Part shown: positions 3,183 through 39,253 of the stretch, piece by piece
How positions within the stretch are numbered: the stretch's first letter is position 1
How the letters are laid out: each line of letters begins with the position of its first letter
Assembly: GCA_900539855.1 (NCBI GenBank)
Contig: UQDO01000002.1
Location: forward strand, 7,033 to 71,032
DNA: 64,000 nucleotides
DNA from: an uncultured Oscillospiraceae bacterium
Lineage (GTDB): Bacteria > Bacillota > Clostridia > Oscillospirales > Acutalibacteraceae
Reading direction: 5' to 3'
The notes under the pieces: generated by a model
Databases searched by the model: none
What the model saw: only the letters and a program-made list of their open reading frames with translations
What the model was told of the DNA's origin: nothing
Translations under genes and position numbers: made by a program

Positions 3183-5167
3183 ATCGCGTCAACCTCCGCC
3201 ATGATCTGTTTGTTCATGAAGCCCTTAAGGTCCATGGCACCCGACATACAGGCGACCGTACAGGCTCCGCAGCCCTGACACACAGCCTCGTTGACGCTGG
3301 CGACACGGCGGACCTTGGTAGTCCTGTCAGGCATCCTGAATTCCTTTTCAACATAAGAGATTGCGCCGTACGGGCAGACCTTTTCGCAGGTCGAGCAGCC
3401 GTTGCACATCATCTCGTCCGAATGGGCAACACACGGGTTGCCGGTCAGCTTATCCTTGCAGAGCAGACCTATGACCTTTGACGCGGCAGCGCCTGCCTGG
3501 GATACCGTTTCGGGTATATCCTTCGGTCCCTGACACGTTCCCGAAAGGAACACGCCTGCAGTCGGACTTTCGACCGGACGCAGCTTGGGATGCGCCTCGG
3601 TAAAGAAATCGTTAGTGTCCATACTTGCAGTCAGCATGGTTGCAAGCGGACGTGCCGATTTGTCAGGCTCGATAGCGGCGGCAAGCACCACAAGGTCTGC
3701 ATCTATATGAAGCTGACGGTTATCTATAAGATCGGACGCACGCACCTTGAGCTTTCCGCCCTCGGGCGACACCTTTCCTACCATACCCTTTATGTAATGC
3801 ACGCCGTATTCCTCGACTGCACGGCGGTAGAACTCATCAAAGTTCTTGCCCGGTGTTCTTACATCTATATAGAATACATAGACCTCGGTATCGGGATACT
3901 TATCGCGTATCAGCATGGCGTGCTTCGCAGTGTACATACAGCATATCTTTGAGCAATATTCCTTGCCCTTTTCGGCGCACGCCTCGCAGCGTGATCCGAC
4001 GCACTGCACGAACACTATCGTGTGCGGATGCTCGCCGTCCGACGGGCGCAGCAGAGTGCCGCCGGTAGGTCCGGCAGCGTTCATAAGACGCTCGAGCTCC
4101 AGAGAGGTTATAACATCCTTTGACTGCGAATATGCATATTCGTCGAACTTATCCATTGAAATAGGATTGAAGCCGGTCGCGACGACTATCGCACCGTACT
4201 TTTCCTCGACGTATTCGTCCTGTGCCTTATAGTCTATGGCTCCTGCGGTACATACCTTGGAGCAGACGCCGCATTTGCCGGTCTTTAACATCATACAGTA
4301 GTTGGGGTCAATAGTAGCGACCTTGGGGACTGCCTGAGCAAAGGGAATATAAATGGCGCGGCGGTTATCCATGCCGAGGTTGAACTCGTTGGGGATCCTG
4401 CGCTGCGGACATTTCTCGGTGCAGGCTCCGCATCCGGTACAGACATCCTCTTTTACATAACGCGCGCGGCGCTTTATGGTGACATCAAAGTTACCTACAA
4501 AGCCCTTTACGTCGGTGACCTCAGAATACGAGAATATGCGGATCTTGTCGTTCTGCGCGACATCGACCATTTTAGGTGTCAGAATACAGGCGGCGCAGTC
4601 GAGGGTCGGGAACGTTTTGTCTAACTGAGCCATTTTTCCGCCTATGGTAGGCTTGGTCTCAACTATATCGACAGGGAAACCTGCGTCGGCAATATCAAGT
4701 GCGGTCTGGATGCCGGCGATACCGCCGCCTATGACCAGAGCGCGCTTGGTGACCGGGCTTTCACCCGGTGTCAGCGGCGCGTTGAGGGCGACCTTGGCGA
4801 CTGCCGCCTTGGCAAGGATTATAGCCTTTTCGGTGCCTGTGGGCATGTCCTTATGCACCCATGAGCACTGCTCACGGATGTTGGCTATCTCGACCATATA
4901 CGGATTCAGTCCTGCTGCCGCGGCGGTCTTGCGGAAGGTAGCTTCATGCATACGGGGCGAACATGAGCAGACAACTATTCCGGTCAGCTTATGCTCGGCG
5001 ACCGACTGCTTTATCATATCCTGTCCAGCCTGAGAGCACATGTACTGATAATCGGTGGAGAAAACTACTCCGGGTTCATTTTTAATAGCCTCGGCTACGG
5101 CCTTTACATCGACCGTTCCGGCAATATTTGTGCCGCAATGGCACACGAATACTCCTATTCTCTGCAC
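3173..5167 (-). CDS. hdrA: Heterodisulfide reductase subunit A-like flavoprotein (FAD plus multiple 4Fe-4S)
   Basis: The protein has the HdrA N-terminal signature IGVFVCHCGTNIAG, a GGGIAG FAD motif and several CxxCxxCxxxCP motifs. The start is placed at the GTG at 5167, which has a strong AAAGGAG RBS. The ATG at 5209 has no RBS and would overlap hdrC. Confidence 0.8.
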   Translation of the reverse strand: MQRIGVFVCHCGTNIAGTVDVKAVAEAIKNEPGVVFSTDYQYMCSQAGQDMIKQSVAEHKLTGIVVCSCSPRMHEATFRKTAAAAGLNPYMVEIANIREQCSWVHKDMPTGTEKAIILAKAAVAKVALNAPLTPGESPVTKRALVIGGGIAGIQTALDIADAGFPVDIVETKPTIGGKMAQLDKTFPTLDCAACILTPKMVDVAQNDKIRIFSYSEVTDVKGFVGNFDVTIKRRARYVKEDVCTGCGACTEKCPQRRIPNEFNLGMDNRRAIYIPFAQAVPKVATIDPNYCMMLKTGKCGVCSKVCTAGAIDYKAQDEYVEEKYGAIVVATGFNPISMDKFDEYAYSQSKDVITSLELERLMNAAGPTGGTLLRPSDGEHPHTIVFVQCVGSRCEACAEKGKEYCSKICCMYTAKHAMLIRDKYPDTEVYVFYIDVRTPGKNFDEFYRRAVEEYGVHYIKGMVGKVSPEGGKLKVRASDLIDNRQLHIDADLVVLAAAIEPDKSARPLATMLTASMDTNDFFTEAHPKLRPVESPTAGVFLSGTCQGPKDIPETVSQAGAAASKVIGLLCKDKLTGNPCVAHSDEMMCNGCSTCEKVCPYGAISYVEKEFRMPDRTTKVRRVASVNEAVCQGCGACTVACMSGAMDLKGFMNKQIMAEVDAICK

Positions 5168-6396: not shown

Positions 6397-7773
6397 TCAG
6401 ACCATCTGCTCGGGGTGGAACACCTCGTCGAACCTCTCAGCGGTAAGGAAGCCGAGCTCTACGCACGCCTCTTTGAGCGAGATGTTGTCCTTGAACGCCT
6501 TTTTGGCGGTCTTTGCGGCGTTTTCATATCCTATATAAGGATTGAGCGCCGTGACCAGCATAAGCGAATTGTGAAGATTATGATACATCTTGTCCTTGTT
6601 TGCGGTAATGCCCACTGCACAGTTATTGTTGAACGAAACGATAGCCTCTGCAAGCAGACGTGCCGACTGAAGGAAGTTGTAAGCCGCGACCGGCATAAAG
6701 ACGTTGAGTTCAAAGTTGCCCTGCGATGCGGCAATGCCGACTGCAACATCGTTGCCCATTACCTGAACGGCGACCATGGTGACCGCTTCGCACTGGGTAG
6801 GATTGACCTTGCCCGGCATTATGGATGAGCCCGGCTCGTTCTCCGGGATATGTATCTCACCGAGACCGTCACGCGGACCGGAAGCCAGCCAGCGGACATC
6901 GTTTGCTATTTTCATCATATCGCAGGCGGTGGCTTTTATGGCACCGTGCGCAAATACGAATTCGTCCTTTGAAGTAAGAGCGTGGAACTTATTTTCGGCA
7001 GTTACAAACGGCTTGCCGGTAAGCTCTGCAACCTTTGCGGCAACAAGCTCGGAAAAGCCCTTGGGCGCATTAAGACCGGTGCCGACGGCGGTACCGCCGA
7101 GAGCCAGCTCATGCAGAGGCTTTACAGCCATGCGAAGCAGCTCAGCATCACGCTCAAGGCTCGCTCTCCAGCCGGATATTTCCTGACTGAACTTTATAGG
7201 AGTCGCATCCTGAAGATGTGTACGTCCCGATTTTACAATACCCTCGTTCTCGGCTTCAAGCTTTTTGAAGGTAGCTATCAGCAGCTCAACCGCCGGAAGG
7301 AGCTTATCCTCTATTGCTATGACCGCCGAAATATGCATTGCGGTCGGGAAGGTGTCGTTTGAGGACTGGCTCATGTTGATGTCGTCGTTCGGATGGCAGA
7401 GCTTTGTGCCTGCTATCTCATTTGCCCTGTTGGCTATGACCTCGTTGGCATTCATGTTGGACTGTGTGCCGGAGCCGGTCTGCCATACGACGAGCGGAAA
7501 ATGACCGTTGAGCTTTCCGGCTATTACCTCGTCGCATGCGGCTGATATTGCCGACAGCTTCTCCGCAGTCATTTTATTGGGGCAAAGCTCGGCGTTTGCA
7601 AGAGCCGCAGCCTTTTTCAGTATTCCGAAGGCGTGGGTTATCTCTCTGGGCATCGTTTCGATATCTACGCCGATTTTGAAGTTCTCATGGCTTCTCTGGG
7701 TCTGGGCAGCCCAAAGACGGTCTGCCGGGACCTTCATTTCTCCCATTGAATCATGTTCGATACGGTATTCCAT
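6397..7773 (-). CDS. fumC: Class II fumarate hydratase
   Basis: The N-terminus DSMGEMKVPADRLWAAQTQRS matches the FumC signature LWGAQTQRS. The GSSIMPGKVNPTQ lyase signature is also present. The protein is 458 aa. Confidence 0.8.
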   Translation of the reverse strand: MEYRIEHDSMGEMKVPADRLWAAQTQRSHENFKIGVDIETMPREITHAFGILKKAAALANAELCPNKMTAEKLSAISAACDEVIAGKLNGHFPLVVWQTGSGTQSNMNANEVIANRANEIAGTKLCHPNDDINMSQSSNDTFPTAMHISAVIAIEDKLLPAVELLIATFKKLEAENEGIVKSGRTHLQDATPIKFSQEISGWRASLERDAELLRMAVKPLHELALGGTAVGTGLNAPKGFSELVAAKVAELTGKPFVTAENKFHALTSKDEFVFAHGAIKATACDMMKIANDVRWLASGPRDGLGEIHIPENEPGSSIMPGKVNPTQCEAVTMVAVQVMGNDVAVGIAASQGNFELNVFMPVAAYNFLQSARLLAEAIVSFNNNCAVGITANKDKMYHNLHNSLMLVTALNPYIGYENAAKTAKKAFKDNISLKEACVELGFLTAERFDEVFHPEQMV

Positions 7774-14570: not shown

Positions 14571-14591
14571 AATAAATCCCGGACCGTTAAA

Positions 14592-14759
14592 TTTTAGTTT
14601 ATAGGCATAAGAAACCGAAAATCAAATTGTGCATTTGTAGGGAACGAGCCTCGAGTGTCGTTCCGCGCGGTTTCATTAGGTTTTAAGGAACGACACTCGA
14701 GGCTCGTTCCCTACGTCTATCAATTAATTATACGAATACCATTCACCTATAAACTAAAA
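14592..14759. repeat. Nested inverted-repeat (MITE/REP-like) element with the family termini TTTTAGTTTATAGG / CCTATAAACTAAAA
   Basis: The outer arms are a perfect 14-bp IR at 14592-14605 and 14746-14759. The inner arms are a perfect 28-bp IR at 14637-14664 and 14687-14714 around a 22-nt loop. Confidence 0.6.
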
Positions 14760-17832: not shown

Positions 17833-18645
17833 ATGCTTAAGACCGAAATGAGAAACGAAAACTCAATGCACATAGACAAAATGGATACCCTATCGATGGT
17901 AAAACTCATAAACGAGGAAAATAAAAAATCGGTAAACGCCGTCGATGAGGCGCTCCCGGCAATAGCCGCGGTATGTGATGCGGCAGCCGCCAGCCTTGAA
18001 AAGGGCGGAAGGATATTTTATGTCGGTGCCGGAACGTCGGGACGCATAGGAGTAATGGACGCTGCCGAGTGTCCGCCCACCTTCGGTGTGGAAAAGGACA
18101 GGGTTATAGGCATTATCGCCGGCGGCGCAAAATGCATGACTATGGCTGCCGAAGCCGAGGAGGACAATGCAGAAGCCGGCAGAGAGGATATAGCCCGTTA
18201 CGGTCTCAATGAAAAGGATATAGTTATAGGCATTTCGGCGTCGGGCGGTGCGGATTATGTTGTGGGCGCGCTTTTGTACGCCAACAGCGTCGGAGCGTGC
18301 AGCGTCAGTATTTCAAGCAACAGCGACACCCCGATAGAGCATGCCGCAAAGCTCCACATAGTGGTCGACACCGGAGCCGAGGTCATAACCGGTTCAACAA
18401 GAATGAAGAGCGGTACGGCTCAGAAGCTTGTGCTCAATATGATCTCGACCGCAGCCATGGTGAAAACAGGCAAGGTGTATGAAAATCTTATGATAAATCT
18501 AAGACCCGGCAACCGCAAGCTAAAGCTGAGGATGATAGGCATTGTCAGTGAAATAGCCGGAAGTGATGCCGAAAACTCGGAAAAACTGCTTGATGCCAAT
18601 GGCTGGAACATCCGCAAGGCAGTAGAAGAAGAGACGAAAAAATGA
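17833..18645 (+). CDS. murQ: N-acetylmuramic acid 6-phosphate etherase (SIS domain)
   Basis: The protein matches MurQ/SIS at ...LINEENKKSVNAVDEALPAIAAV...GRIFYVGAGTSGRIGVMDAAECPPTFG... and is 270 aa. Confidence 0.75.
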   Translation: MLKTEMRNENSMHIDKMDTLSMVKLINEENKKSVNAVDEALPAIAAVCDAAAASLEKGGRIFYVGAGTSGRIGVMDAAECPPTFGVEKDRVIGIIAGGAKCMTMAAEAEEDNAEAGREDIARYGLNEKDIVIGISASGGADYVVGALLYANSVGACSVSISSNSDTPIEHAAKLHIVVDTGAEVITGSTRMKSGTAQKLVLNMISTAAMVKTGKVYENLMINLRPGNRKLKLRMIGIVSEIAGSDAENSEKLLDANGWNIRKAVEEETKK

Positions 18646-18670
18646 CCTTCGGTCTGACCGGAGGTCATTA
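18639..18670. repeat. 32-bp GC hairpin, left copy of a perfect direct repeat flanking the 234-bp element; probably also the murQ terminator
   Basis: The sequence aaatgaccttcggtctgaccggaggtcattac recurs identically at 18905-18936. On the minus strand the hairpin is followed by TTTTTT. Confidence 0.6.
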
Positions 18671-18904
18671 CAGTCTGTCGATAAACCTCAAAGTCTACTC
18701 TTTCGTCGGTTATACTGCATTTTCTGTTTTTCCGCTGACATGCGCGGCGAAAAAACACCTTGTAAGCGAAAAACCGCAGAATATAGCGGTTTTTCAAGGA
18801 CACTGGGGTGGTATTGGCGGGGATAGAGCGCAGTCCGAAAATCTTTGATTTTCGAGCGAGCGGCATTCCCGTCCAAAAGCGTGTCGAATTTTTCGACACG
18901 CTCA
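18671..18904. repeat. 234-bp structured element, copy 1 (candidate sRNA or miniature mobile element)
   Basis: It differs from 38246-38479 by 3 substitutions in 234 bp. It contains internal hairpins (aaaaccgc-agaatata-gcggtttt, cgaaaatc-ttt-gattttcg, gcgtgtcgaa-ttt-ttcgacacgc). No protein-like ORF is present. Confidence 0.6.
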
Positions 18905-18936
18905 AATGACCTTCGGTCTGACCGGAGGTCATTACT
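18905..18936. repeat. 32-bp GC hairpin, right copy of the direct repeat flanking the 234-bp element
   Basis: It is identical to 18639-18670. Confidence 0.6.
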
Positions 18937-18958: not shown

Positions 18959-19318
18959 CTAATCTTCCACCGGAAGAACAAACCTTGAACAGTAACGTTT
19001 GGTTTCGATTTCACGACCGGTATACGGAGCAACGATGCCAAGTGCCCTCGGCGCGGCGGCAGGCTTTAAACCGTGCGCCTTTGCTTCCCTGCCAAGGGTC
19101 AGGCATGCCTCATCTGCACCGCTGTAATCGCCGCAGTACAGCACCGACAGTACTCCGGCTGTAAGTCCAAAAATCTGCACCGGCTTTAATTTTCCCGCAA
19201 ACAGCATGCGCCCGGCAAAAGCAGTCAAAATATTATTGCCGCGCACAGCGCGATTTAAAAATGTACGGCAAATAAAAATCGATCGGTATAATTCTTCTGA
19301 AATAACAGATAATAGCAT
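18959..19318 (-). CDS. Hypothetical protein; doubtful ORF
   Basis: The 119-aa ORF has no RBS and no recognisable motif. It leaves only 30 nt before the spoVT start. It may be non-coding. Confidence 0.25.
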   Translation of the reverse strand: MLLSVISEELYRSIFICRTFLNRAVRGNNILTAFAGRMLFAGKLKPVQIFGLTAGVLSVLYCGDYSGADEACLTLGREAKAHGLKPAAAPRALGIVAPYTGREIETKRYCSRFVLPVED

Positions 19319-20053: not shown

Positions 20054-20130
20054 TGGCGGTATAGCTCAGTTGGCTAGAGCACTCGGTTCATACCCGATTT
20101 GTCGTTGGTTCAAGTCCAATTACCGCTACC
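20054..20130 (+). tRNA. tRNA-Met (anticodon CAT)
   Basis: The cloverleaf GGCGGTATAGCTCAGTTGGCTAGAGCACTCGGTTCATACCCGA...GGTTCAAGTCCAATTACCGCTACCA is close to Bacillus elongator tRNA-Met. CCA is encoded. Confidence 0.8.
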
Positions 20131-20170
20131 ATAATTATCCGCGTTCCGGTGTACCGGGACGCGGATTACC

Positions 20171-20245
20171 CGGCCCGGTGGTCAAGCGGCTAAGACACCG
20201 CCCTTTCACGGCGGTAACACGAGTTCGATTCTCGTCCGGGTCACC
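20171..20245 (+). tRNA. tRNA-Glu (anticodon TTC)
   Basis: The sequence GGCCCGGTGGTCAAGCGGCTAAGACACCGCCCTTTCACGGCGGTAACACGAGTTCGATTCTCGTCCGGGTCACCA is near-identical to the canonical Firmicute tRNA-Glu. Confidence 0.85.
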
Positions 20246-20276
20246 AAAAGCACTTGCAGCGCAGGTGCTTTTTTTC
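20246..20276 (+). terminator. Terminator after tRNA-Glu
   Basis: The hairpin gcacttgc-agc-gcaggtgc is followed by TTTTTTT. Confidence 0.5.
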
Positions 20277-21238: not shown

Positions 21239-21264
21239 CGTTTAGTATTATGTATATATGTATT

Positions 21265-21284
21265 GGTGAATTTTAGTTTAGAGG
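21265..21284. repeat. Solo copy of the GGTGAATTTTAGTTTA repeat-family terminus
   Basis: It shares 16 bp with 38170-38185. No partner arm was found nearby. Confidence 0.4.
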
Positions 21285-21480
21285 TATTAAATGCGAAAAT
21301 TCCAATTCAGCGCTTGTATGGCAGGTGCCCCACGATGTGCAAATCAGTTTTTATGTTTATTATCGAACAGCCTTAAATTTAAAATGTCGTTCATATAGTC
21401 CGGTACATGTTTTTATCATATTTGCGTTTTGGTAAATTATATTGTATAATTAATATATACTTTTAAAAATGTGGTGCTGT

Positions 21481-31204: not shown

Positions 31205-31394
31205 CGTTCCTTAATAAACAGCCTAAAAACCAATTGACACTTTGTAGGGCAAGGGTCCCACTTCTGCCGCCACTTTTACAACAAATCAAGCAATTAATTT
31301 TAGTTTATAGGTGCACAAAAAACAAATGGCTAATTGAATTTTTGTAGGGAACGACCTATGTCTGTCAATATTTCATTACGCAGATAAACTAAAA
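31205..31394. repeat. Degenerate composite copy of the TTTTAGTTTATAGG / TGTAGGGAACGAC inverted-repeat element
   Basis: Family motifs occur in a fixed order. These are gtgtcgttcc at 31211, ttgtagggcaa at 31243, ttttagtttatagg at 31298, tgtagggaacgac at 31333 and ataaactaaaa at 31384. Confidence 0.45.
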
Positions 31395-31473
31395 TTTACC
31401 GACCTGTTATACTGCTGCATTTTAATTGCTCGGGGGATATAAACATCCCCCGGGCAAATTTTGTACGCATTTT

Positions 31474-33297
31474 CTACCTTTCAAACACCACATCATACCT
31501 GCTCATCCACTCGTCAAACTGGATGAGCCATGCTATAAGCTGGGGCGTTGACATCAGCTGTCCGAACCAGGTCTTGTCATCGCCGCTCAGCACCGCGTCG
31601 AGCGCCGACCTGTCGATTATCTCACCTATCCTGCCGCTTTTGAGCCTTTCCTTCAGCATTTCCGTAACCCGCGCCCTGTATTTTGGCGAATGTGTTTTTG
31701 GGTACGGGCTTTTTTTGCGCCAAAGTATTTTATCAGGCAAAAGCCCGTTTACCGAGTTCCTCAGCAGCGCTTTTTCCACACCGTCATGATATTTTATCTC
31801 CCACGGCACATTATAGACATACTCAAGTATCCTGTGATCGGAAAACGGCACGCGAACCTCAAGTCCGCTGTACATGCTCATCCTGTCCTTGCGTTCAAGC
31901 AGTGAGGTCATGAAATACCCCACCGAAAGGCATGTGGCTATTCTTGACGTCCGCATTGAGTCGCTGTCGGTCGGCAGCGTGGGACAATTTTGCAAAATTT
32001 TCTTGTATTCGCCGGATAAATATGAATACCCTTCGTCCGGCAGCGCAAAATCCTTTCTGAACAGCGAAATGCGCTCCATAGGCTCGTGTATCCACGGGAA
32101 GAAATCGCGATAAAGCATTTCAGGACGGTAGAACCACGGATATCCGCCGAATATTTCGTCCGAACATTCACCAGACAACGCAACGGTGTGACGTTCCTTT
32201 ACCCTTTTGCAAAAATAAAGCAGCGAGGAATCTATGTCAGCCTGACCGGGTATATCGCGGCTAAGCGTCGCATCAATGAGGCAGTCTGCAACAGCTTCGT
32301 TTGGAGCGGTGAGCACGGTATGGTCGGTTCCGAGCCACCCGGCAAGATATACCGCAAATTCGTCGTCGCCCTGCGGCTGGAAAAGTGATTTTTTAAAATT
32401 TTCCTTGTTGCCCTCGTACTCAAATGAATATGTCGACAGCTTCTCCCCTGATGCCTTGTATTTCTTTGCGGCAAATGCCGTCAGCACCGATGAATCAAGT
32501 CCGCCCGAAAGGAATGTACAAAGCGGCACATCGCTGACCGTCTGGCGGTCGACCGCGTCGCTTATAAGCTCCGAGACCTCCTCAGCCGCCGTCCCTGCGG
32601 TGCCTGACCACGGCTTTGCCTCAAGCCGCCAGTACTCCCGGAGCGTCAGTCCTCCGTCAAGCTTATACTCTCCGCAATATGCAGGTTTTAACTCCTCTAT
32701 ATCGCTGAATATTCCGCTGCCGGACAGGGTGACCGGCGTCAGAAACAAAAGCTGCCACAACCCCTCCATAGGCACCTTGCGGCTTATGTTTGGATCGGCA
32801 AGCAGCGCCTTCATTTCCGAGGCGAAAATAAACCTTTCACCCTTTACGCTGTAAAAGAACGGCTTTACGCCGAGTCTGTCACGCGCAAAAAACACCGTTT
32901 TACCGTACACATCGTAGACAGCAAAGGCAAAAATTCCGTTTAAAAGCTTTGGACACTCAGCACCGAAAATAATATAGCTCCAGAGCACAACTTCGGTATC
33001 ACAGGCGGTTCTGAAAGCCGCGCCGCGAAGTTCCAACCGCCTTTTTAGCTCCGGCGCGTTATATATCTCGCCGTTATAAACAATGATATATTCCCTGCCG
33101 CCGTATGTCGCAGACATCGGCTGCGCGCCGTTTTGCGGATCCATGACCGCAAGCCGGTTATGGTGCAGCGCCACAAAGCTGTCGGAAAAGCCTTCGCTTG
33201 CATCCGGTCCCCGGTTTTTCATTGTAAGCCCCATTTTCGCCACAAGCTCTTTGTCAGCGTGACCACATCTATCTATCATTCCGCATATCGAGCACAT
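31474..33297 (-). CDS. asnB: Asparagine synthase (glutamine-hydrolysing)
   Basis: The protein begins MCSICGMID, matching E. coli AsnB MCSIFGV with the Cys2 nucleophile. The synthetase domain has the SGGLDSS PP-loop. Confidence 0.85.
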   Translation of the reverse strand: MCSICGMIDRCGHADKELVAKMGLTMKNRGPDASEGFSDSFVALHHNRLAVMDPQNGAQPMSATYGGREYIIVYNGEIYNAPELKRRLELRGAAFRTACDTEVVLWSYIIFGAECPKLLNGIFAFAVYDVYGKTVFFARDRLGVKPFFYSVKGERFIFASEMKALLADPNISRKVPMEGLWQLLFLTPVTLSGSGIFSDIEELKPAYCGEYKLDGGLTLREYWRLEAKPWSGTAGTAAEEVSELISDAVDRQTVSDVPLCTFLSGGLDSSVLTAFAAKKYKASGEKLSTYSFEYEGNKENFKKSLFQPQGDDEFAVYLAGWLGTDHTVLTAPNEAVADCLIDATLSRDIPGQADIDSSLLYFCKRVKERHTVALSGECSDEIFGGYPWFYRPEMLYRDFFPWIHEPMERISLFRKDFALPDEGYSYLSGEYKKILQNCPTLPTDSDSMRTSRIATCLSVGYFMTSLLERKDRMSMYSGLEVRVPFSDHRILEYVYNVPWEIKYHDGVEKALLRNSVNGLLPDKILWRKKSPYPKTHSPKYRARVTEMLKERLKSGRIGEIIDRSALDAVLSGDDKTWFGQLMSTPQLIAWLIQFDEWMSRYDVVFER

Positions 33298-33448
33298 GTC
33301 CATCACTCCGTATGTTAGTTCTTAGTTATTTTATGCCGCAAACACATAAATGTTCCTCATTTTACTTCTTTATTAACATACTTTTTACTTTATTTTATGC
33401 CGATTATATGATACTATTGTGTTACGGATGTAAAGGTGGGCTTGATAT

Positions 33449-34099
33449 ATGTATAAATTTGCGGTTTTTGATCTTGACGGTACGCTGATCGACAGCATGG
33501 GATGCTGGAGGAATGTCATTCCTATATATGCTGAACTCAAAGGCATAAAATGCAGCGGACTTTCCGATGAGGAGCTTCGCAAAACCGACACTATGTCATG
33601 CAACGACGCGGTCGAATATATGCGTTCGGTGTCCGACGACCCTGCTTTAAAGAATTTTACATATTCGGACATGCTTTATGTAATGGATGAGTGTTACCGT
33701 CACCGCACTCCGGTCCGTGCCGGCGTACCGGACATGCTCAAAGGTTTGAAGGAAAAGGGCGTTCGCATGTGCGTGATATCGGCTACTCCTACGCGTCTTG
33801 TAAAAACAGCGCTCAGCACGGCAGAGCTTATCGATTATTTTGAATTTATCCTCACTCCTGACGACTATCCGGCAGGCAAAAACACACCGGATATATTCAT
33901 GGCAGCGGCAAAAAAATTCGGCTGCGAAACGGGGGATATGGCGATATTTGAGGACACATATTACAGCATGAAAACCGCAAAAGGGCTCGGTATGCATGTA
34001 ATAGCCGTTGAGGATCGCTTTGAAGCCTATGAGCGGGATAAGATAAAAGACATAGCCGACGAATACTATAAGGAATTTACCGAATTTCGGTATAAATAA
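33449..34099 (+). CDS. HAD-IA family hydrolase (beta-phosphoglucomutase-like)
   Basis: Motif I FDLDGTLIDS is present and the protein is 216 aa. An AAAGGTGGG RBS is present. Confidence 0.75.
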   Translation: MYKFAVFDLDGTLIDSMGCWRNVIPIYAELKGIKCSGLSDEELRKTDTMSCNDAVEYMRSVSDDPALKNFTYSDMLYVMDECYRHRTPVRAGVPDMLKGLKEKGVRMCVISATPTRLVKTALSTAELIDYFEFILTPDDYPAGKNTPDIFMAAAKKFGCETGDMAIFEDTYYSMKTAKGLGMHVIAVEDRFEAYERDKIKDIADEYYKEFTEFRYK

Positions 34100-34102
34100 A
34101 AG

Positions 34103-34141
34103 AGTGCATAGAGGCTTTGCCCTCTATGCACTTTTCGTTTT
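34103..34141. terminator. Bidirectional terminator between the HAD gene and the lysis cassette
   Basis: The hairpin agtgcatagagg-ctttgc-cctctatgcact is followed by TTTCGTTTT. Confidence 0.5.
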
Positions 34142-34143
34142 CC

Positions 34144-34341
34144 TTACGCTACTTCCGGCAGTCCTGCTATACTTGTAAGCAGTGACAAAACGCCTGCGAG
34201 CAGTGCTGTACTGCCAACGACAAGCCAGTTGATATCACCGAAAGCCGCACTTGTTCCGATGGTTGCTATCGCCGATTGGGCAATAGTTTTCACGGCTCTT
34301 ATTCCTGCAGCCTTGAACCACTTTTTAGTGTTATCCTTCAC
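34144..34341 (-). CDS. Phage holin (small, LL-H / phi-LC3-like family)
   Basis: The 65-aa protein has two predicted TM helices. It sits at the 3' end of the lysis cassette and overlaps the preceding gene by 4 nt. Confidence 0.6.
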   Translation of the reverse strand: MKDNTKKWFKAAGIRAVKTIAQSAIATIGTSAAFGDINWLVVGSTALLAGVLSLLTSIAGLPEVA

Positions 34342-34616
34342 TGTGTGATATACCTCCCTTCATTTCTTTCAACCTCACGCACGCGTCGGTCGAGCGACCT
34401 TATGCGTTCCTCGATCACCGGCAGGTTCTTTGCAGATGCATTAAGTTCCCGTACCTCACGCGTCAGCTCCTCTAATTTTGTGTCCGTTACAGCCTGTGCA
34501 ACGTCGATCCTTCTTTTCATTTCACGGCCGGACCTTCTCCCGGCTATCAATGCGCCGAAAAAGGACAGCAAGCCCACTATGATCGCCGCTGCCGCTGAAA
34601 TCAGTGTCTCAGCCAA
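34338..34616 (-). CDS. Lysis-cassette membrane/coiled-coil protein (XhlA-like by position only)
   Basis: The 92-aa protein has an N-terminal TM helix and a C-terminal coiled coil. It lies between the endolysin and the holin. Confidence 0.45.
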   Translation of the reverse strand: MAETLISAAAAIIVGLLSFFGALIAGRRSGREMKRRIDVAQAVTDTKLEELTREVRELNASAKNLPVIEERIRSLDRRVREVERNEGRYITQ

Positions 34617-34642
34617 TTTAAACGCCTCCGCCTGAAACTAAC

Positions 34643-35395
34643 TCAGCTTATTCCCAGTATTCTTTTCCATGAGTTGAGTCCCACGGCGCCGTCAGCCACA
34701 AGACCGTTTGCAGCCTGCCATTTGATGACCGCTGCACGGGTATCATTGCCGAACTTGCCGTCCGCGGTCACGCCGACTACTTGCTGAACGATAGCAGTAA
34801 GATTTTTGTACCTGTAGCCGACGGCATATTTTTTGCATATCGCCTGCTTCGCGACCGCAGCGCACTCTGCACCCCACGCGCCGTCAGCGCCGTACCTCGG
34901 GAATTTGAAGCCGTCAGCCATCGCCGCTTTCTGCCACTGCTTTACCGATACCGACGACACGGCTGCTACGCCAAAGGTCGAGCGGTATTTCTGATCCTGC
35001 CCGTACCAGAACGACTTTGTCACACGGGTGTCAATGTGAACAAAATAGCCGTCCTTCGCTGTCTCGTAAAGTCCGATACCCTTTGCACCTATGCTTTCTG
35101 CGTACTTCGCAACCTCGGAGGGGCTGACACCTGCGATCATGATGTCAGCCGCCATGCCTGCCTTGTGCTTTGACGCGGTCGCGCCGCCGACCGACCGGTT
35201 GTGCCTTTCGCAGCGGTATCCGCTCGAAATTATGATCGGCTTGCCGAAATGGTCACGGATCTTCTGCAGATATTCCACAAGCTGCATGTCCACAAGCGTT
35301 TCATTGCAGCAGCCCACACCGTGGCAGTCAAACTCAGTTGAACGGAAATTTGCACTGAGTTGTGTCGATACGCCCTTTTTAAACCTCTTTATCAA
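34643..35395 (-). CDS. Phage endolysin: M15-type zinc peptidase plus a C-terminal peptidoglycan-binding domain
   Basis: The zinc motifs SGYRCERHNRSVGG...SKH...D of the Peptidase_M15 family are present. The C-terminal repeat ADGKFGNDTRAAVIKWQAANGLVADGAVG is a PG_binding_1 domain. Confidence 0.8.
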   Translation of the reverse strand: MIKRFKKGVSTQLSANFRSTEFDCHGVGCCNETLVDMQLVEYLQKIRDHFGKPIIISSGYRCERHNRSVGGATASKHKAGMAADIMIAGVSPSEVAKYAESIGAKGIGLYETAKDGYFVHIDTRVTKSFWYGQDQKYRSTFGVAAVSSVSVKQWQKAAMADGFKFPRYGADGAWGAECAAVAKQAICKKYAVGYRYKNLTAIVQQVVGVTADGKFGNDTRAAVIKWQAANGLVADGAVGLNSWKRILGIS

Positions 35396-35567
35396 TGTTA
35401 TCCTCCTCTCCTTTTTCCTTTATTGCCGCCTCAATCTCGGCGAGATCACCCTCGGTGAGGACGCCCTTTTCGAGCCACCCGGCGGCGTTTAAAATTATCT
35501 GGTAGTCAGCCATGCTGCCTGCCGCTTTTATAAGACCTGATTTTATGAAATTTCTTAAATTGAACAT
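35379..35567 (-). CDS. XkdX-family small phage protein
   Basis: The 62-aa protein follows the XkdX-like pattern ...GWLEKGVLTEGDLAEIEAAIKEK. It lies between the tail-fibre and endolysin genes, as in PBSX-like phages. Confidence 0.55.
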   Translation of the reverse strand: MFNLRNFIKSGLIKAAGSMADYQIILNAAGWLEKGVLTEGDLAEIEAAIKEKGEEDNIDKEV

Positions 35568-37708
35568 TATACATTCCCTCCGAGCGATATTATCGCCTGT
35601 TTTAATTCGTCAAACGCTTTGTTTATATCCCTGTTGTATCTGGTGCTGAGCGTACCGGGCGACTTCACGGCAAATGTGCAGACATTCTCCCTTGCGGCGG
35701 TTACATTGCCGTCAGTATCGGGCGTAAGCTCCGCCGGCGCTGCGTATTTTTCATAACCTGCGGCGGCGTCGCTGCACCTGACCTGTATTCTGACCTTGTA
35801 ATTGTCGAAAGCCACGCCGGCATATACATAGATCCATGTTCTCTCAAGAAAATAGCTCCTGTCGCAGGTTTTGGTCTGTGACGTGCTTTCGTTTTTAAGC
35901 GGTGCGGCGTGCAGCTTGTCACCCCAAAGAGCAGCATCGTTTGTGTATCCGGTGTGGAACACGGCATCCCGACCATACTGATTTTGTGTAGTAGTGCCGC
36001 TTACATATTCAACGTCGACTGTAAAATCTTTATTCAGCCCATAATAAAAATTGGGTATTGCGACAGTAAACTGCTGGTTTTCCGACGGAGAAGAACCGTT
36101 AAATAAGAAGCAATCTTCATCCGGCAGATACTGTATTGTAATACCGCCAAAGGTCTGAGCAGTCATCCAAGGAGTCGGGTCAAAAATGTTGCGGCCGAGC
36201 TTATAGACCTTGGAAGGCGCATTATCGCCCACGGCAGCAACATTTACGGTGACCGTGTCCTCGCATGGCGAAACATCGTCTATCCCCAGCATGCTTCCCG
36301 ATTTTTGTGACACCAGCGCGTTTGCTCTTTCACCGAGACAGGAGCTAATGTCCCTGTTGTAGGTCACGCTGACGGTGCCGGCAGACACCGAGACGGTCAT
36401 GGGCGACGCGGTGGAATTAAGCCCCGTGACCGTGCCGTCGGCAGAAGCAGAGCCTGTAGATACCGTGCCGTCCGGCGCCGTGACCGTAACGGCGGTGGGT
36501 ATAGCCTGTACGGTACTGACGGTCAGAGTGCAGGTCTCGGTCACAAGATCGCTTTGCAGTATACCATTTACCGCAAATCCTGTGATCTTTGAACCGGCAG
36601 CTACGGTCGTACTTACCGTAACATCGTCATTTATGGCACCATAGCAGCCCTTTTTGCCGGTAACCGTAAGTGTCGTCCCGTCTATTACATAATCCAGGAC
36701 GCTGAAGCATGACGTTTCGGCATTTGCTGATGTTGTCACTGCCGCATCAGTGACCTGTTCGCCGTCCACTACAGGCACAAGTACGGACGGACTGCTTGAA
36801 GGTATAGTGCCCTCTACACCGGATTTGCGCTCAATGTACCCCTGCAAAACAACATGAACGTTTTCATCCGGCTGTTCAAGTGTTATGCTGCCTGCACTTG
36901 TAAGAGCATTTTTAGATACCTCGACAAGTCCCGTGCCTGATGTCAGCACCGAGCACTTTACCTTTAACTCATGCTTTAAGGGCGATACATCATTTACCGT
37001 AAATGATGTTCCACCAACCGTGTTTTTAACCGGGTTGCAAAGCTCGTTCGGCAAACTTACCAGAGTTTCAAGCTTCTGCACCGCGCTCTTGGCAATTTCA
37101 GCCTGCGCTTTCGCCTCATCGGCTTTACTTTCTGCCGATCTGCTGCAGTTGAAAGCCATGTTGCTGCTGAGTTCGCAGGCGGTTTTTATTCCGGCTGCCG
37201 TCTCGCTGTCGGTCTTGGCATTATCAGCACTCAGTTTGGCATCGGCTGCGAGGGCGGCGGCTGACTCTGCGCTTGCCTTTGCCTCATCAATGCGCTTGTC
37301 GCAAAGCAGCATCATACTTTCGAAATTGTCCGAAGATCTCTCGATTTCTGCAAACGGTGTTTCTGAAACGCCGACATTCAGCGGCAGCACCGAGCTCTTG
37401 CATATCTGCACTGCTTCGCCGTCCGACTCCTTATATCCGGCAAGCTGGAAATGTATCACCGGCGCGTTCATTGCCTCAAAGGGCACCGTATATTCGATAA
37501 TTCCATCGCTAATATAAAGCTTTTCACTGTAATGACCGTCAATTATCACTCTATAATATTCGGAATTGCCGAAATGTGTCCCGGATATATCGTCAATGCT
37601 TATGCGGAGCAGAACGGCATTGTGTTCTCCTCCGTAACCTATTGTTCTGTCGGGCTCACTCAACCACGCTTTTCCGTCATCATAGAATTTGATTGTGGTA
37701 TAACGCAT
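35567..37708 (-). CDS. Phage tail fibre / host-specificity protein (BppU-like N-terminus, coiled coil, Ser/Thr/Val-rich beta region)
   Basis: The 713-aa protein has an Ala/Lys-rich coiled coil over about residues 140-210. A long T/S/V-rich region follows. It is the first gene of the phage remnant on this strand. Confidence 0.6.
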   Translation of the reverse strand: MRYTTIKFYDDGKAWLSEPDRTIGYGGEHNAVLLRISIDDISGTHFGNSEYYRVIIDGHYSEKLYISDGIIEYTVPFEAMNAPVIHFQLAGYKESDGEAVQICKSSVLPLNVGVSETPFAEIERSSDNFESMMLLCDKRIDEAKASAESAAALAADAKLSADNAKTDSETAAGIKTACELSSNMAFNCSRSAESKADEAKAQAEIAKSAVQKLETLVSLPNELCNPVKNTVGGTSFTVNDVSPLKHELKVKCSVLTSGTGLVEVSKNALTSAGSITLEQPDENVHVVLQGYIERKSGVEGTIPSSSPSVLVPVVDGEQVTDAAVTTSANAETSCFSVLDYVIDGTTLTVTGKKGCYGAINDDVTVSTTVAAGSKITGFAVNGILQSDLVTETCTLTVSTVQAIPTAVTVTAPDGTVSTGSASADGTVTGLNSTASPMTVSVSAGTVSVTYNRDISSCLGERANALVSQKSGSMLGIDDVSPCEDTVTVNVAAVGDNAPSKVYKLGRNIFDPTPWMTAQTFGGITIQYLPDEDCFLFNGSSPSENQQFTVAIPNFYYGLNKDFTVDVEYVSGTTTQNQYGRDAVFHTGYTNDAALWGDKLHAAPLKNESTSQTKTCDRSYFLERTWIYVYAGVAFDNYKVRIQVRCSDAAAGYEKYAAPAELTPDTDGNVTAARENVCTFAVKSPGTLSTRYNRDINKAFDELKQAIISLGGNV

Positions 37709-38167
37709 TTTATTCCTCCTTTGTTGCAGACTAAAGCTGCCGCCGTCTCGCGGTCAAGCGGAAAAACGGCATCAAATATACGCACGCAAAAAGAGAACGT
37801 TGGTGCAACTTTTCAGGGAACTTTGTCAATTTACAAATTGTATTGTCAATCTGTTTTAAGCACTTGACAAGCATTTATGTAAACAAGATAACCCATGATA
37901 TTTATCAACGTTATCCCCAACCTTCTCAACACATATTAACCTCGGGAGGCTGTTCTTAACCGATTTTGCGCGGTGTTTGATACAAAACCTGTGGAAAACC
38001 GTGTTGATAACGTGGATTACTAAACGTATATAAATAATGCTGCTTTGAAATTATGTTAATAATCAAAGCAGCCACTTTCTGTCATAATTAAAATTTTAAA
38101 CAAAGAAAAATCCAATAATACCCCTTTGCAGGATAAATCTTACACCGGTTCTGTTTTATATTTTATA

Positions 38168-38209
38168 TGGTGAATTTTAGTTTATCTGCATAAAGGTAAA
38201 CTAAAATTT
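38168..38209. repeat. Minimal hairpin copy of the TTTTAGTTTA inverted-repeat family
   Basis: ggtgaattttagtttat-ctgcataaagg-taaactaaaattt has 13-bp arms. Confidence 0.5.
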
Positions 38210-38217
38210 ATAATTAA

Positions 38218-38246
38218 AGACCGGCAGGAATGTCCCTGCCGGTCCC
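38218..38246. repeat. GC hairpin of the gaccggcagg family, left flank of 234-bp element copy 2
   Basis: gaccggcaggaatgtccctgccggtc is near-identical to 21209-21238. Confidence 0.45.
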
Positions 38247-38479
38247 AGTCTGTCGATAAACCTCAAAGTCTACTCTTTCGTCGGTTATGCTGCATTTTCT
38301 GTTTTTCCGCTGACATGCGCGGCGGAAAAACACCTTGTAAGCGAAAAACCGCAGAATATAGCGGTTTTTCAAGGACACTGGGGTGGTATTGGCGGGGATA
38401 GAGCGCAGTCCGAAAATCTTTGATTTTCGAGCGAGCGGCATTCCCGTCCAAAAGCGTGTCGACTTTTTCGACACGCTCA
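38246..38479. repeat. 234-bp structured element, copy 2
   Basis: It matches 18671-18904 with 3 mismatches in 234 bp. Confidence 0.6.
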
Positions 38480-38505
38480 GACCGCAGTTCCCTGCGGTCT
38501 TTTTC
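38480..38505 (+). terminator. Rho-independent terminator abutting the 3' end (plus sense) of element copy 2
   Basis: The hairpin gaccgcag-ttcc-ctgcggtc is followed by TTTTTC. Confidence 0.5.
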
Positions 38506-38515
38506 TGTAAAAAAA

Positions 38516-39253
38516 TTATTGCACACTCTTTCCGCCGTCTACGAAAATGCACTGGCCGGTCATATACCTGCCCTCGTCAGAGCAGAGGAGCGACACTATC
38601 CCTGCACAGTCGTCAGGCTTTCCGTAAAAGCCTACCGGTATAGAGGCTATTACCTTCGCGGCATACTGGGGATCAGACAAAGCCTCAACGTTCCGGTCAG
38701 TATAAATAACGCCCGGCGCTACATTGTTTACCGTTATTCCGAACGGCGCCAGCTGAAGTGACAGCGATCTCACCATATTGGTCTGTGCCGCCTTTGCGGC
38801 AGAGTAAATGAGCATGTCGGGATGCGGTTTTGCCTCCTGAACACTGCCTATTGTGACTATCCTGCCCCACTTTTGCTCCTTCATATGGGGGACTACTGCT
38901 TTTATCAGCATCAGCGACGATACAAAATCACAGTTGAGCTGATCGTACACCTCACCCAGCTCTATTTCATCCCAATGCTTTCTTATCTGCAGTGACGCAT
39001 TGAGCACCAATGCGTCTATATCCCCTGCATTTGACGCTAAAAGCGCCGTTTCCGACGTTTTGCAGAGGTCAGCTCTGATAACGCTTGCCCTGCCGCCGTT
39101 TTCTTCTATCAGACGTCTTGTCTCATCAGCTTTATCGGTATTTCCGGCGCAGTGAACTATCACCTCATAGCCGTCCTTTGCAAGGCGTATTGCTATTGCT
39201 CTGCCTATACCGCGGGACGAACCCGTTACAAGCACGCGTTTTCCGTTCGACAA
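38516..39253 (-). CDS. SDR family oxidoreductase (3-oxoacyl-ACP reductase-like)
   Basis: The TGSSRGIGRA Rossmann motif and a YxxxK catalytic motif are present. The protein is 245 aa. Confidence 0.8.
   Translation of the reverse strand: MSNGKRVLVTGSSRGIGRAIAIRLAKDGYEVIVHCAGNTDKADETRRLIEENGGRASVIRADLCKTSETALLASNAGDIDALVLNASLQIRKHWDEIELGEVYDQLNCDFVSSLMLIKAVVPHMKEQKWGRIVTIGSVQEAKPHPDMLIYSAAKAAQTNMVRSLSLQLAPFGITVNNVAPGVIYTDRNVEALSDPQYAAKVIASIPVGFYGKPDDCAGIVSLLCSDEGRYMTGQCIFVDGGKSVQ

Follow-up and report, generated by a model that had tools for sequence, protein, structure and literature searches.

We analyzed a 64,000-nucleotide stretch of DNA from an uncultured Oscillospiraceae bacterium (GenBank assembly GCA_900539855.1, contig UQDO01000002.1, positions 7,033 to 71,032 of the forward strand; hereafter the window), in which a non-coding element of about 234 nt at the 3' end of murQ is bracketed by two perfect 32-bp copies of a hairpin. 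Our findings indicate, with good confidence, that this segment is a transposable element of the miniature inverted-repeat type (MITE), probably mobilised in trans by a DDE transposase of the IS1182 family, and that the 32-bp repeat is a target-site duplication of hairpin length. An earlier account made from the letters of the window alone (the sequence-only reading) had offered three origins for the repeat, namely the duplication of a terminator hairpin upon insertion, the att core of a site-specific recombinase, or recombination between REP-like hairpins. The first of these, together with the proposal that the element targets hairpins, is supported by the flanks of 35 of 53 copies of the element family, by an empty site for the hairpin called hairpin 1 below, by a duplicated hairpin in contig L182 (contigs and loci of the comparison set are denoted by L numbers), and by a single terminator behind murQ in a species whose MurQ is 74% identical.

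The window contains the 32-mer AAATGACCTTCGGTCTGACCGGAGGTCATTAC at exactly two places, 18640-18671 and 18904-18935, while none of 100 dinucleotide-preserving shuffles contained any match to it with up to three mismatches tolerated. The perfect repeat around a 234-bp element that the sequence-only reading had described is therefore confirmed, although its coordinates (18639-18670 and 18905-18936) were off by one base. Identity between the two copies ends abruptly: the preceding base is a in one and c in the other, and the following bases are AGTCTG and TGCATA, respectively. The homology of the 234-nt element and each flanking 32-mer overlap by one base. The 32-mer is an imperfect palindrome that folds into a stem of 11-13 bp with a small loop. 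Directly before its left copy lies AAAAAA, so that the minus strand reads the hairpin followed by a T-run (TTTTTT). The murQ stop codon TGA (18643-18645) is located within the left copy, so that the reading frame of murQ ends inside the duplicated hairpin. In some strains (contigs L077, L078 and L083, ~2292-2323), the left and right hairpin copies differ by one mismatch, and MurQ is called with 274 instead of 270 aa. The features of the two element loci in the window are compiled in Table 1.

Table 1 Features of the two element loci in the window (positions as in the 64,000-nt stretch).
Feature	Position	Strand	Remarks
Target hairpin, left copy (putative target-site duplication)	18640-18671		Exact repeat; fold; murQ stop inside
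MITE-like non-coding element, copy 1, ~232-234 nt	18671-18904	+	5' end CAGTCTGTCGATAAAC, 3' end GACTTTTTCGACACGCTC(A)
Target hairpin, right copy (putative target-site duplication)	18904-18935		Adjoins 3' end of minus-strand open reading frame 18959-19318
Hairpin 2, GACCGGCAGGAATGTCCCTGCCGGTC(C), left of copy 2	38219-38245		Duplicated on both sides of the element in L182
MITE-like element, copy 2	38246-38479	+	3 differences from copy 1
Hairpin 1, GACCGCAGTTCCCTGCGGTC + TTTTT, right of copy 2	38480-38504		Terminator downstream of minus-strand SDR gene 38516-39253

The element belongs to a dispersed family. An exact-match genome scan with its central 22-mer returned 66 loci in about 15 species-representative metagenome-assembled genomes (MAGs), which are labelled Ruminococcaceae, Eubacteriales or Clostridia and stem mostly from the human gut; as the family was sampled by this one exact 22-mer, conservation of that stretch is inflated and diverged members are missed. 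According to BLAST and an nhmmer profile, nearly all members are full length and end alike, with CAGTCTGTCGATAAAC on one side and TTTCGACACGCTC(A) on the other, and across most of their length they are 82-92% identical to the two window copies, which differ from each other at three positions. The MAG UMGS1222 alone harbors about 20 loci, and some 14 of these copies are almost identical to each other, which points to a recent burst. The elements are 226-235 nt in length and contain only spurious open reading frames (ORFs), none of them credible. Their two ends form an imperfect inverted repeat (11 of 16 positions) and co-vary between subfamilies. The family accordingly has the hallmarks of a MITE: it is short, lacks a transposase gene and is present in many dispersed copies; its terminal inverted repeats are related to those of an autonomous insertion sequence, with the exception of the last 5 nt at the 3' end; and its members are flanked by target-site duplications and show presence/absence polymorphism, as seen for hairpin 1 in its filled and empty states. 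In Rfam 15, which includes the terminator-targeting group IIC introns, no family matched the element at gathering score (best E-values 1.4-9.7, with scores far below threshold), and blastn of the element against phage and plasmid collections gave no match. When viral contigs were scanned for an internal 29-mer, the 3' hairpin, the 5' terminus and the left end of the insertion sequence described below, two of these patterns had no match at all; the loci found with the other two do not contain the element by nhmmer and are therefore chance matches. Likewise, isolated matches to the 3' end motif were set aside as chance or as the other arm of the palindrome.

The flanks of every copy were listed and scored, and both ends could be located for 53 copies. 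Of these, 35 lie between direct repeats with a length of 19-37 bp (median 26), and in 25 of the 35 the repeat is perfect. The repeat has a different sequence at all 35 loci, and each one folds as a stem-loop (-7 to -29 kcal/mol). In 32 of the 35, the left copy is preceded by an A-rich run, the right copy is followed by a T-rich run, or both, and this arrangement of A-run, hairpin and T-run resembles the layout of intrinsic and often bidirectional terminators. The duplicated unit consists of the stem-loop and roughly one further base on either side. The element's apparent last base (A; G in L006; T in L003) equals the base upstream of the left repeat in L006 and L003 and hence belongs to the duplication rather than to the element. 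A search for direct repeats of hairpins spaced 100-6000 bp apart returned no type of element other than the 234-nt one. Separately, L016 (7100-7450) contains a 64-bp direct repeat that holds two hairpins, with the copies 287 bp apart around an unrelated 223-bp segment; as the similarity runs on weakly beyond the repeat, this may be a tandem duplication and not a second hairpin-duplicating element.

At murQ itself, the element is present in all 14 same-species metagenome contigs with the gene that were examined, and 12 of these have both hairpin copies. The comparison of murQ-spoVT regions proposed by the sequence-only reading as a way to find an empty site with a single hairpin had a divided outcome: no such site occurs among the 14 murQ contigs of the species, but in the closest species that shares the gene order, the one with 74% MurQ identity, there is one terminator hairpin behind murQ, of a different sequence, and the element is absent. 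No other MurQ protein exceeds 88% identity, and the one at 88% is encoded on an unrelated AT-rich contig. In L069 and L071, the sequence behind murQ diverges exactly at the right end of the element and continues with a different hairpin.

The second copy in the window provides the empty site. As the sequence-only reading had correctly noted, copy 2 lies between two different hairpins, GACCGGCAGGAATGTCCCTGCCGGTC at 38219-38244 (hairpin 2) and GACCGCAGTTCCCTGCGGTC followed by TTTTT at 38480-38504 (hairpin 1). Nine contigs (L087-L091, L093-L096) encode a protein identical to that of the SDR gene at 38516-39253 (SDR245) and display the gene, a single hairpin 1 (aaaaaGACCGCAGGGAACTGCGGTCtttt) and a thioesterase gene, with no element. 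Since their homology to the window ends exactly at the element boundary and hairpin 1 is single, they represent the empty site. In contig L092 the element abuts hairpin 1 in the same way as in the window, and the locus is thus polymorphic for presence and absence of the element. Contig L182, on the other side, has the element between two copies of hairpin 2, in front of a gene matching window positions 35567-37708; the duplication of GACCGGCAGGAATGTCCCTGCCGGTC(C) is perfect over 26-27 bp, and further out come a different SDR gene and gidA. The sample that yielded L182 also gave contig L067, which is identical to the window over 900 bp around copy 1. With hairpin 1 empty in nine contigs and hairpin 2 duplicated in L182, copy 2 is a hybrid of two insertion loci in the order SDR245-hairpin 1-element-hairpin 2-713-aa gene. 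Its mismatched flanks would stem either from homologous recombination of one element copy with another or from an assembly join made across the repeat, and the same alternatives would apply to L069 and L071. The reciprocal products are absent from the window, and none of the neighbors of the alternative loci (a 4HBT gene, GidA-SDR254, the downstream flanks of L069 and L071) was found in the window. Next to copy 2, at window positions ~33067-37708, the gene calls of L182 reveal a phage-like lysis module with a 713-aa protein without Pfam match, a Peptidase_M15/PG_binding protein and an r1t-type holin, which suggests a prophage remnant.

Clustering of all ORFs of at least 180 aa from the 66 loci and the window revealed no multi-copy transposase beside the MITE copies. 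A candidate mobiliser is found at the end of contig L049, the last 74 nt of which show the 5' terminal motif of the element beside a hairpin, followed by a different interior. A metagenome scan with this interior returned 29 loci. They belong to an insertion sequence of 1510-1511 bp with a single ORF of 481 aa, whose product matches the IS1182-family model NCBIfam NF033551 with 398 bits (cut-off 270) and contains the Pfam domains DUF772 and DDE_Tnp_1_6. An IS30-family partner, which had been the first idea by analogy to IS1630, was ruled out, as the transposase belongs to the IS1182 family and no IS30 model was among the matches. The insertion sequence begins with CAGTCTGTCGAATAACCCTAAAT and ends with ...GGACTTTTTCGACAGACTG, the two ends having the inverted terminal motif CAGTCTGTCGAA...TTCGACAGACTG in common. 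Its left terminus matches the 5' end of the MITE at 15 of 17 positions, and GACTTTTTCGACA is common to the insertion sequence and the 3' end of the MITE. The target preference corresponds as well: in 28 of 29 cases the left end of the insertion sequence adjoins a locus-specific hairpin at its 3' base, the seven complete copies all lie between hairpins, and two of the seven (L156, L178) show a perfect 20-bp hairpin duplication. Both elements occur in the same hosts and even on the same contigs (L049, L051/L156 and L178). L178 (oriented 1-1860) is nested, with hairpin X, a MITE in reverse orientation, hairpin Y, the 1511-bp insertion sequence and hairpin Y again. Apparently, one of the two elements took over a hairpin copy which the other had produced or used. 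In view of the common terminus, the common target habit and the co-occurrence on contigs, mobilisation of the MITE by this transposase is likely. Two loci carry a 56-bp derivative (L164 1632-1687 and L174 152-207, oriented) that consists only of the two terminal repeats and a short loop, CAGTCTGTCGAATAACCCTAAATTCCAAGCGAGATTTAGGGTTATTCGACAGACTG, and has a perfect 23-bp terminal inverted repeat, CAGTCTGTCGAATAACCCTAAAT; these loci have a common right flank and different left hairpins. The closest annotated relative of the transposase, at 67% amino acid identity, is that of an IS1182-family element on the finished Thermocaproicibacter melissae plasmid pTVN (NZ_CP101828.1; L183/L185, across the record origin). 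It has similar termini, CAGATTGTCGAAG... and ...TTTTTCGACAGGCTG, and adjoins a type III-A cas10 gene.

DDE transposases usually join the 3' ends of their element to opposite strands a few bp apart, and gap repair then yields a short duplication. Several copies of the MITE reside in AT-rich DNA without a hairpin and have short direct repeats of ~7-9 bp (e.g. L038, tattatt; L009, aattgta; L022), which would fit a conventional staggered cut at such sites. For the family described here, we propose that the transposase would select its targets by DNA structure and not by sequence, the preferred structures being stem-loops that resemble intrinsic terminators. As the duplicated unit is the stem-loop plus about one base per side, the joints would lie at the two bases of the stem, within about 1-2 nt, and gap repair would copy the entire hairpin into a target-site duplication of hairpin length (19-37 bp). 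In an extruded hairpin or cruciform the two stem bases are spatially adjacent, so that ordinary active-site geometry could suffice, with the length of the duplication being set by the hairpin. Cutting at the base of an extruded hairpin would also account for the variable length, the lack of a sequence consensus and the occurrence of both orientations. The predicted outcome, A-run - hairpin - element - hairpin - T-run, would leave a hairpin beside each neighboring gene, as is seen at murQ, and may thereby preserve termination on both sides. A comparable outcome is known from Cas1-Cas2 and casposons, where a pair of staggered strand transfers, located at the borders of an often palindromic repeat of ~30 bp, leads to duplication of the whole repeat. 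This is an analogy only: no Cas1 is involved here, a defined element is inserted, and the duplicated sequence differs from site to site.

Several observations weigh against this explanation or limit it. The hairpin duplication is missing in 18 of the 53 copies; in about seven of these, a hairpin is confined to the left side or the hairpins of the two sides differ. Five of the seven complete copies of the insertion sequence have different hairpins on the two sides, and so does the T. melissae relative on its finished plasmid. Matching hairpins in only two of seven copies, taken together with the plasmid relative, imply that duplication may not be the sole outcome of insertion or that rearrangement may be very frequent. 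The right termini of the two elements differ in the last five bases (MITE CGACACGCTC, CGCTC; insertion sequence CGACAGACTG, GACTG), and the insertion sequence is found in related genomes and not in the 64-kb window. Two variants that have the core of the element but other ends (L028/L008 and L042/L002, see below) do not fit a simple terminal-inverted-repeat model. The published hairpin-targeting relatives, IS1272 and TnSha1, do not duplicate their targets, unlike the elements described here, where 35 of 53 MITE copies and two of seven copies of the insertion sequence retain and duplicate the hairpin in full. Finally, the comparison data are mostly short-read MAG and metagenome assemblies, and chimeric joins across repeats can occur in these.

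The interior of the element contains four or five conserved hairpins. We aligned 35 copies, chosen from a set filtered to less than 95% pairwise identity, and the consensus comprises 60 base pairs in eight helices, with 98.6% of the alignment cells paired. Changes on both sides occur in nine pairs, corresponding to 51 cells compared to 13.8 in shuffles and 0-6 in slid controls, figures that are qualified by the relatedness of the sequences. Several G-U pairs are conserved on the plus strand only, which indicates that the fold is strand-specific and formed by RNA or single-stranded DNA. The two window copies have no promoter-like site. A variant that occupies the same position in two MAG species (L042, 3555-3785; L002, ~212-441) has no target duplication and fully compensated helices, and it is preceded by a sigma-70-like promoter (TTGCAA-17-TATATT) and has a terminator-like 3' hairpin; judged by these features, it may be a version expressed as an RNA gene. 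Another variant (L028, 3881-4138; L008, minus strand, ~7180-7333) has the same core (profile positions 49-204) with different, non-inverted ends, and its 36-bp flanking direct repeat ttaacggtagtattaccgaaaaaggaggtttaaaac includes the region where ribosomes would bind for a small gene on the minus strand. The core of the MITE may be an RNA carried as cargo. Taking this further, the MITE could be more than an insertion sequence with an internal deletion and carry a functional structured RNA of ~150-200 nt on its plus strand, outside Rfam, which spread through a clade of gut Oscillospiraceae/Ruminococcaceae by transposition into terminators while the transposase measured the duplication by the hairpin. 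The promoter-bearing and the same-core variants lend this support, and we consider it a tentative possibility. If it is true, each new copy would gain a terminator automatically from the duplicated hairpin.

An RNA function of the cargo is compatible with transposition by the IS1182-family enzyme, and it becomes a rival explanation only where mobility itself is concerned, that is, if the segment were a small structured RNA gene between terminators that spread by, for instance, retrotransposition instead of by a transposase. The hairpin on its upstream side would then terminate the adjacent gene, and the one on its downstream side the RNA itself. The compensated fold, the strand-specific G-U pairs and the promoter and terminator-like hairpin of the L042/L002 variant all agree with such a gene, and target duplications of variable length are also typical of target-primed reverse transcription. 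However, no reverse transcriptase is linked to the element, and the copies run over the full length, begin sharply at the 5' end and show neither 5' truncation nor an A-tail. Moreover, the lack of a promoter-like site in the two window copies and of a match in Rfam speaks against an RNA gene, and the terminal motif is common to a DDE insertion sequence of the same target habit. RNA-mediated spread therefore appears unlikely to us.

The two other origins raised by the sequence-only reading fare worse. A perfect 32-bp direct repeat around an insert is a classic att footprint, and strain L072 has a gene for a large serine recombinase near the locus; on this view a tyrosine or serine recombinase would have left the repeat as its attL/attR core, and the segment would be its insert or the remnant of a larger island. 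Yet the duplicated sequence is specific to each of the 35 loci, which have only the hairpin shape in common, and hence it cannot be a common att core. Besides, the element contains no copy of the repeat and is accompanied by no recombinase gene, and its ends are defined by the terminal motif that it has in common with the DDE insertion sequence. An att origin is thus extremely improbable. Alternatively, the hairpins could have been there before the segment, with a REP-like pair having captured it or a tandem duplication having produced the arrangement, without any transposition. Hybrids with two hairpins (window copy 2, L069, L071 and L178) demonstrate that recombination or assembly joins do occur, and such joins between element copies do explain copy 2. 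To this extent the idea of recombination stands, but the hairpins are locus-specific and form no repeat family; in the window, the 32-mer is present only at the murQ site even with up to three mismatches allowed. The same sharp-ended element lies between repeats at 35 unrelated loci, hairpin 1 has an empty site with a single copy, and a related species has one hairpin after murQ. As an origin of the murQ arrangement, pre-existing hairpins are very unlikely.

Transposition by the IS1182-family enzyme also agrees in part with what is known from other systems. In Staphylococcus, IS1272 and TnSha1 of the IS1182 family insert in hairpins, including confirmed terminators, without a sequence consensus; insertion occurs at the hairpin base or in the stem and in either orientation, and the hairpin is partly deleted or replaced without being duplicated (PMC4923244, PMC5678879). 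A paper from 2025 describes insertion in the IS1182 family as occurring with or without duplication or deletion, at targets defined by sequence or structure (PMC12056078). The elements described here resemble IS1272 and TnSha1 in the family of the partner transposase (NF033551) and in hairpin targeting without consensus, and they differ from them in their hosts, which are gut Oscillospiraceae/Ruminococcaceae, and in that the abundant form is a 234-nt non-coding derivative. With respect to the outcome, the closer parallel is provided by IS1630 and ISMhom-1 of the IS30 family in Mycoplasma, which are reported to duplicate target inverted repeats of variable length (16-26 bp) at gene 3' ends or in intergenic regions (PMC2853133, PMC3317919, PMC7648426). 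The duplications of 19-37 bp observed here are of the same kind, each corresponding to one stem-loop, whereas the transposase belongs to IS1182 and not IS30 and the hosts to another phylum. No MITE derivative with a hairpin duplication is described for IS1630 or ISMhom-1 in these papers.

Bacterial MITEs such as Correia, RUP, Chunjie and QMITE are small, non-coding, multi-copy and intergenic, with inverted repeats related to insertion sequences, target-site duplications and structured transcripts or DNA, as reviewed in PMC10969869; this 2024 review of prokaryotic MITEs does not mention one that duplicates a whole stem-loop of variable length. The duplications of the described MITEs are short and of fixed length, whereas those found here have the length of a hairpin, and the interior is unusually conserved with covariation. 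In comparison with these systems, what would seem to be new is a duplication like that of IS1630 made by an IS1182-family element and, mainly, by its likely MITE in uncultured gut Clostridia, while hairpin targeting as such was already known.

These findings suggest that an IS1182-family transposase and its likely MITE produce a target-site duplication that is set by DNA structure and not by a fixed stagger, which would join two behaviors that have been reported separately, the hairpin targeting of IS1272 and the inverted-repeat duplication of IS1630. The footprints of 19-37 bp form a natural series on how a DDE transposase may engage an extruded hairpin or cruciform. As the duplicated terminator leaves a hairpin for both neighboring genes, it may also explain why the element is tolerated where many genes end in these abundant and uncultured bacteria of the gut. 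In practical terms, repeats of 234 bp and 1.5 kb break or mis-join metagenome assemblies, and hybrid flanks were seen repeatedly, while the conserved and covarying interior is a candidate for a new RNA.

Two further features of the window are noted. Downstream of spoVT, at 20055-20246, lie genes for tRNA-Met (CAT) and tRNA-Glu (TTC), and in strain L072 the large serine recombinase gene is found shortly beyond them. In addition, the window contains a second, unrelated family of short repeats of the type AATTTTAGTTTA...GGCATAA, often as inverted pairs (14585-14714, 21253-21446, 31219-31401 and 38157-38215). An example of such a pair, GGTGAATTTTAGTTTATCTGCATAAAGGTAAACTAAAATTT, is located immediately left of element copy 2, and in another strain a 44-bp match to window positions 31355-31398 occurs downstream of the empty SDR site (L087, ~4027-4070).

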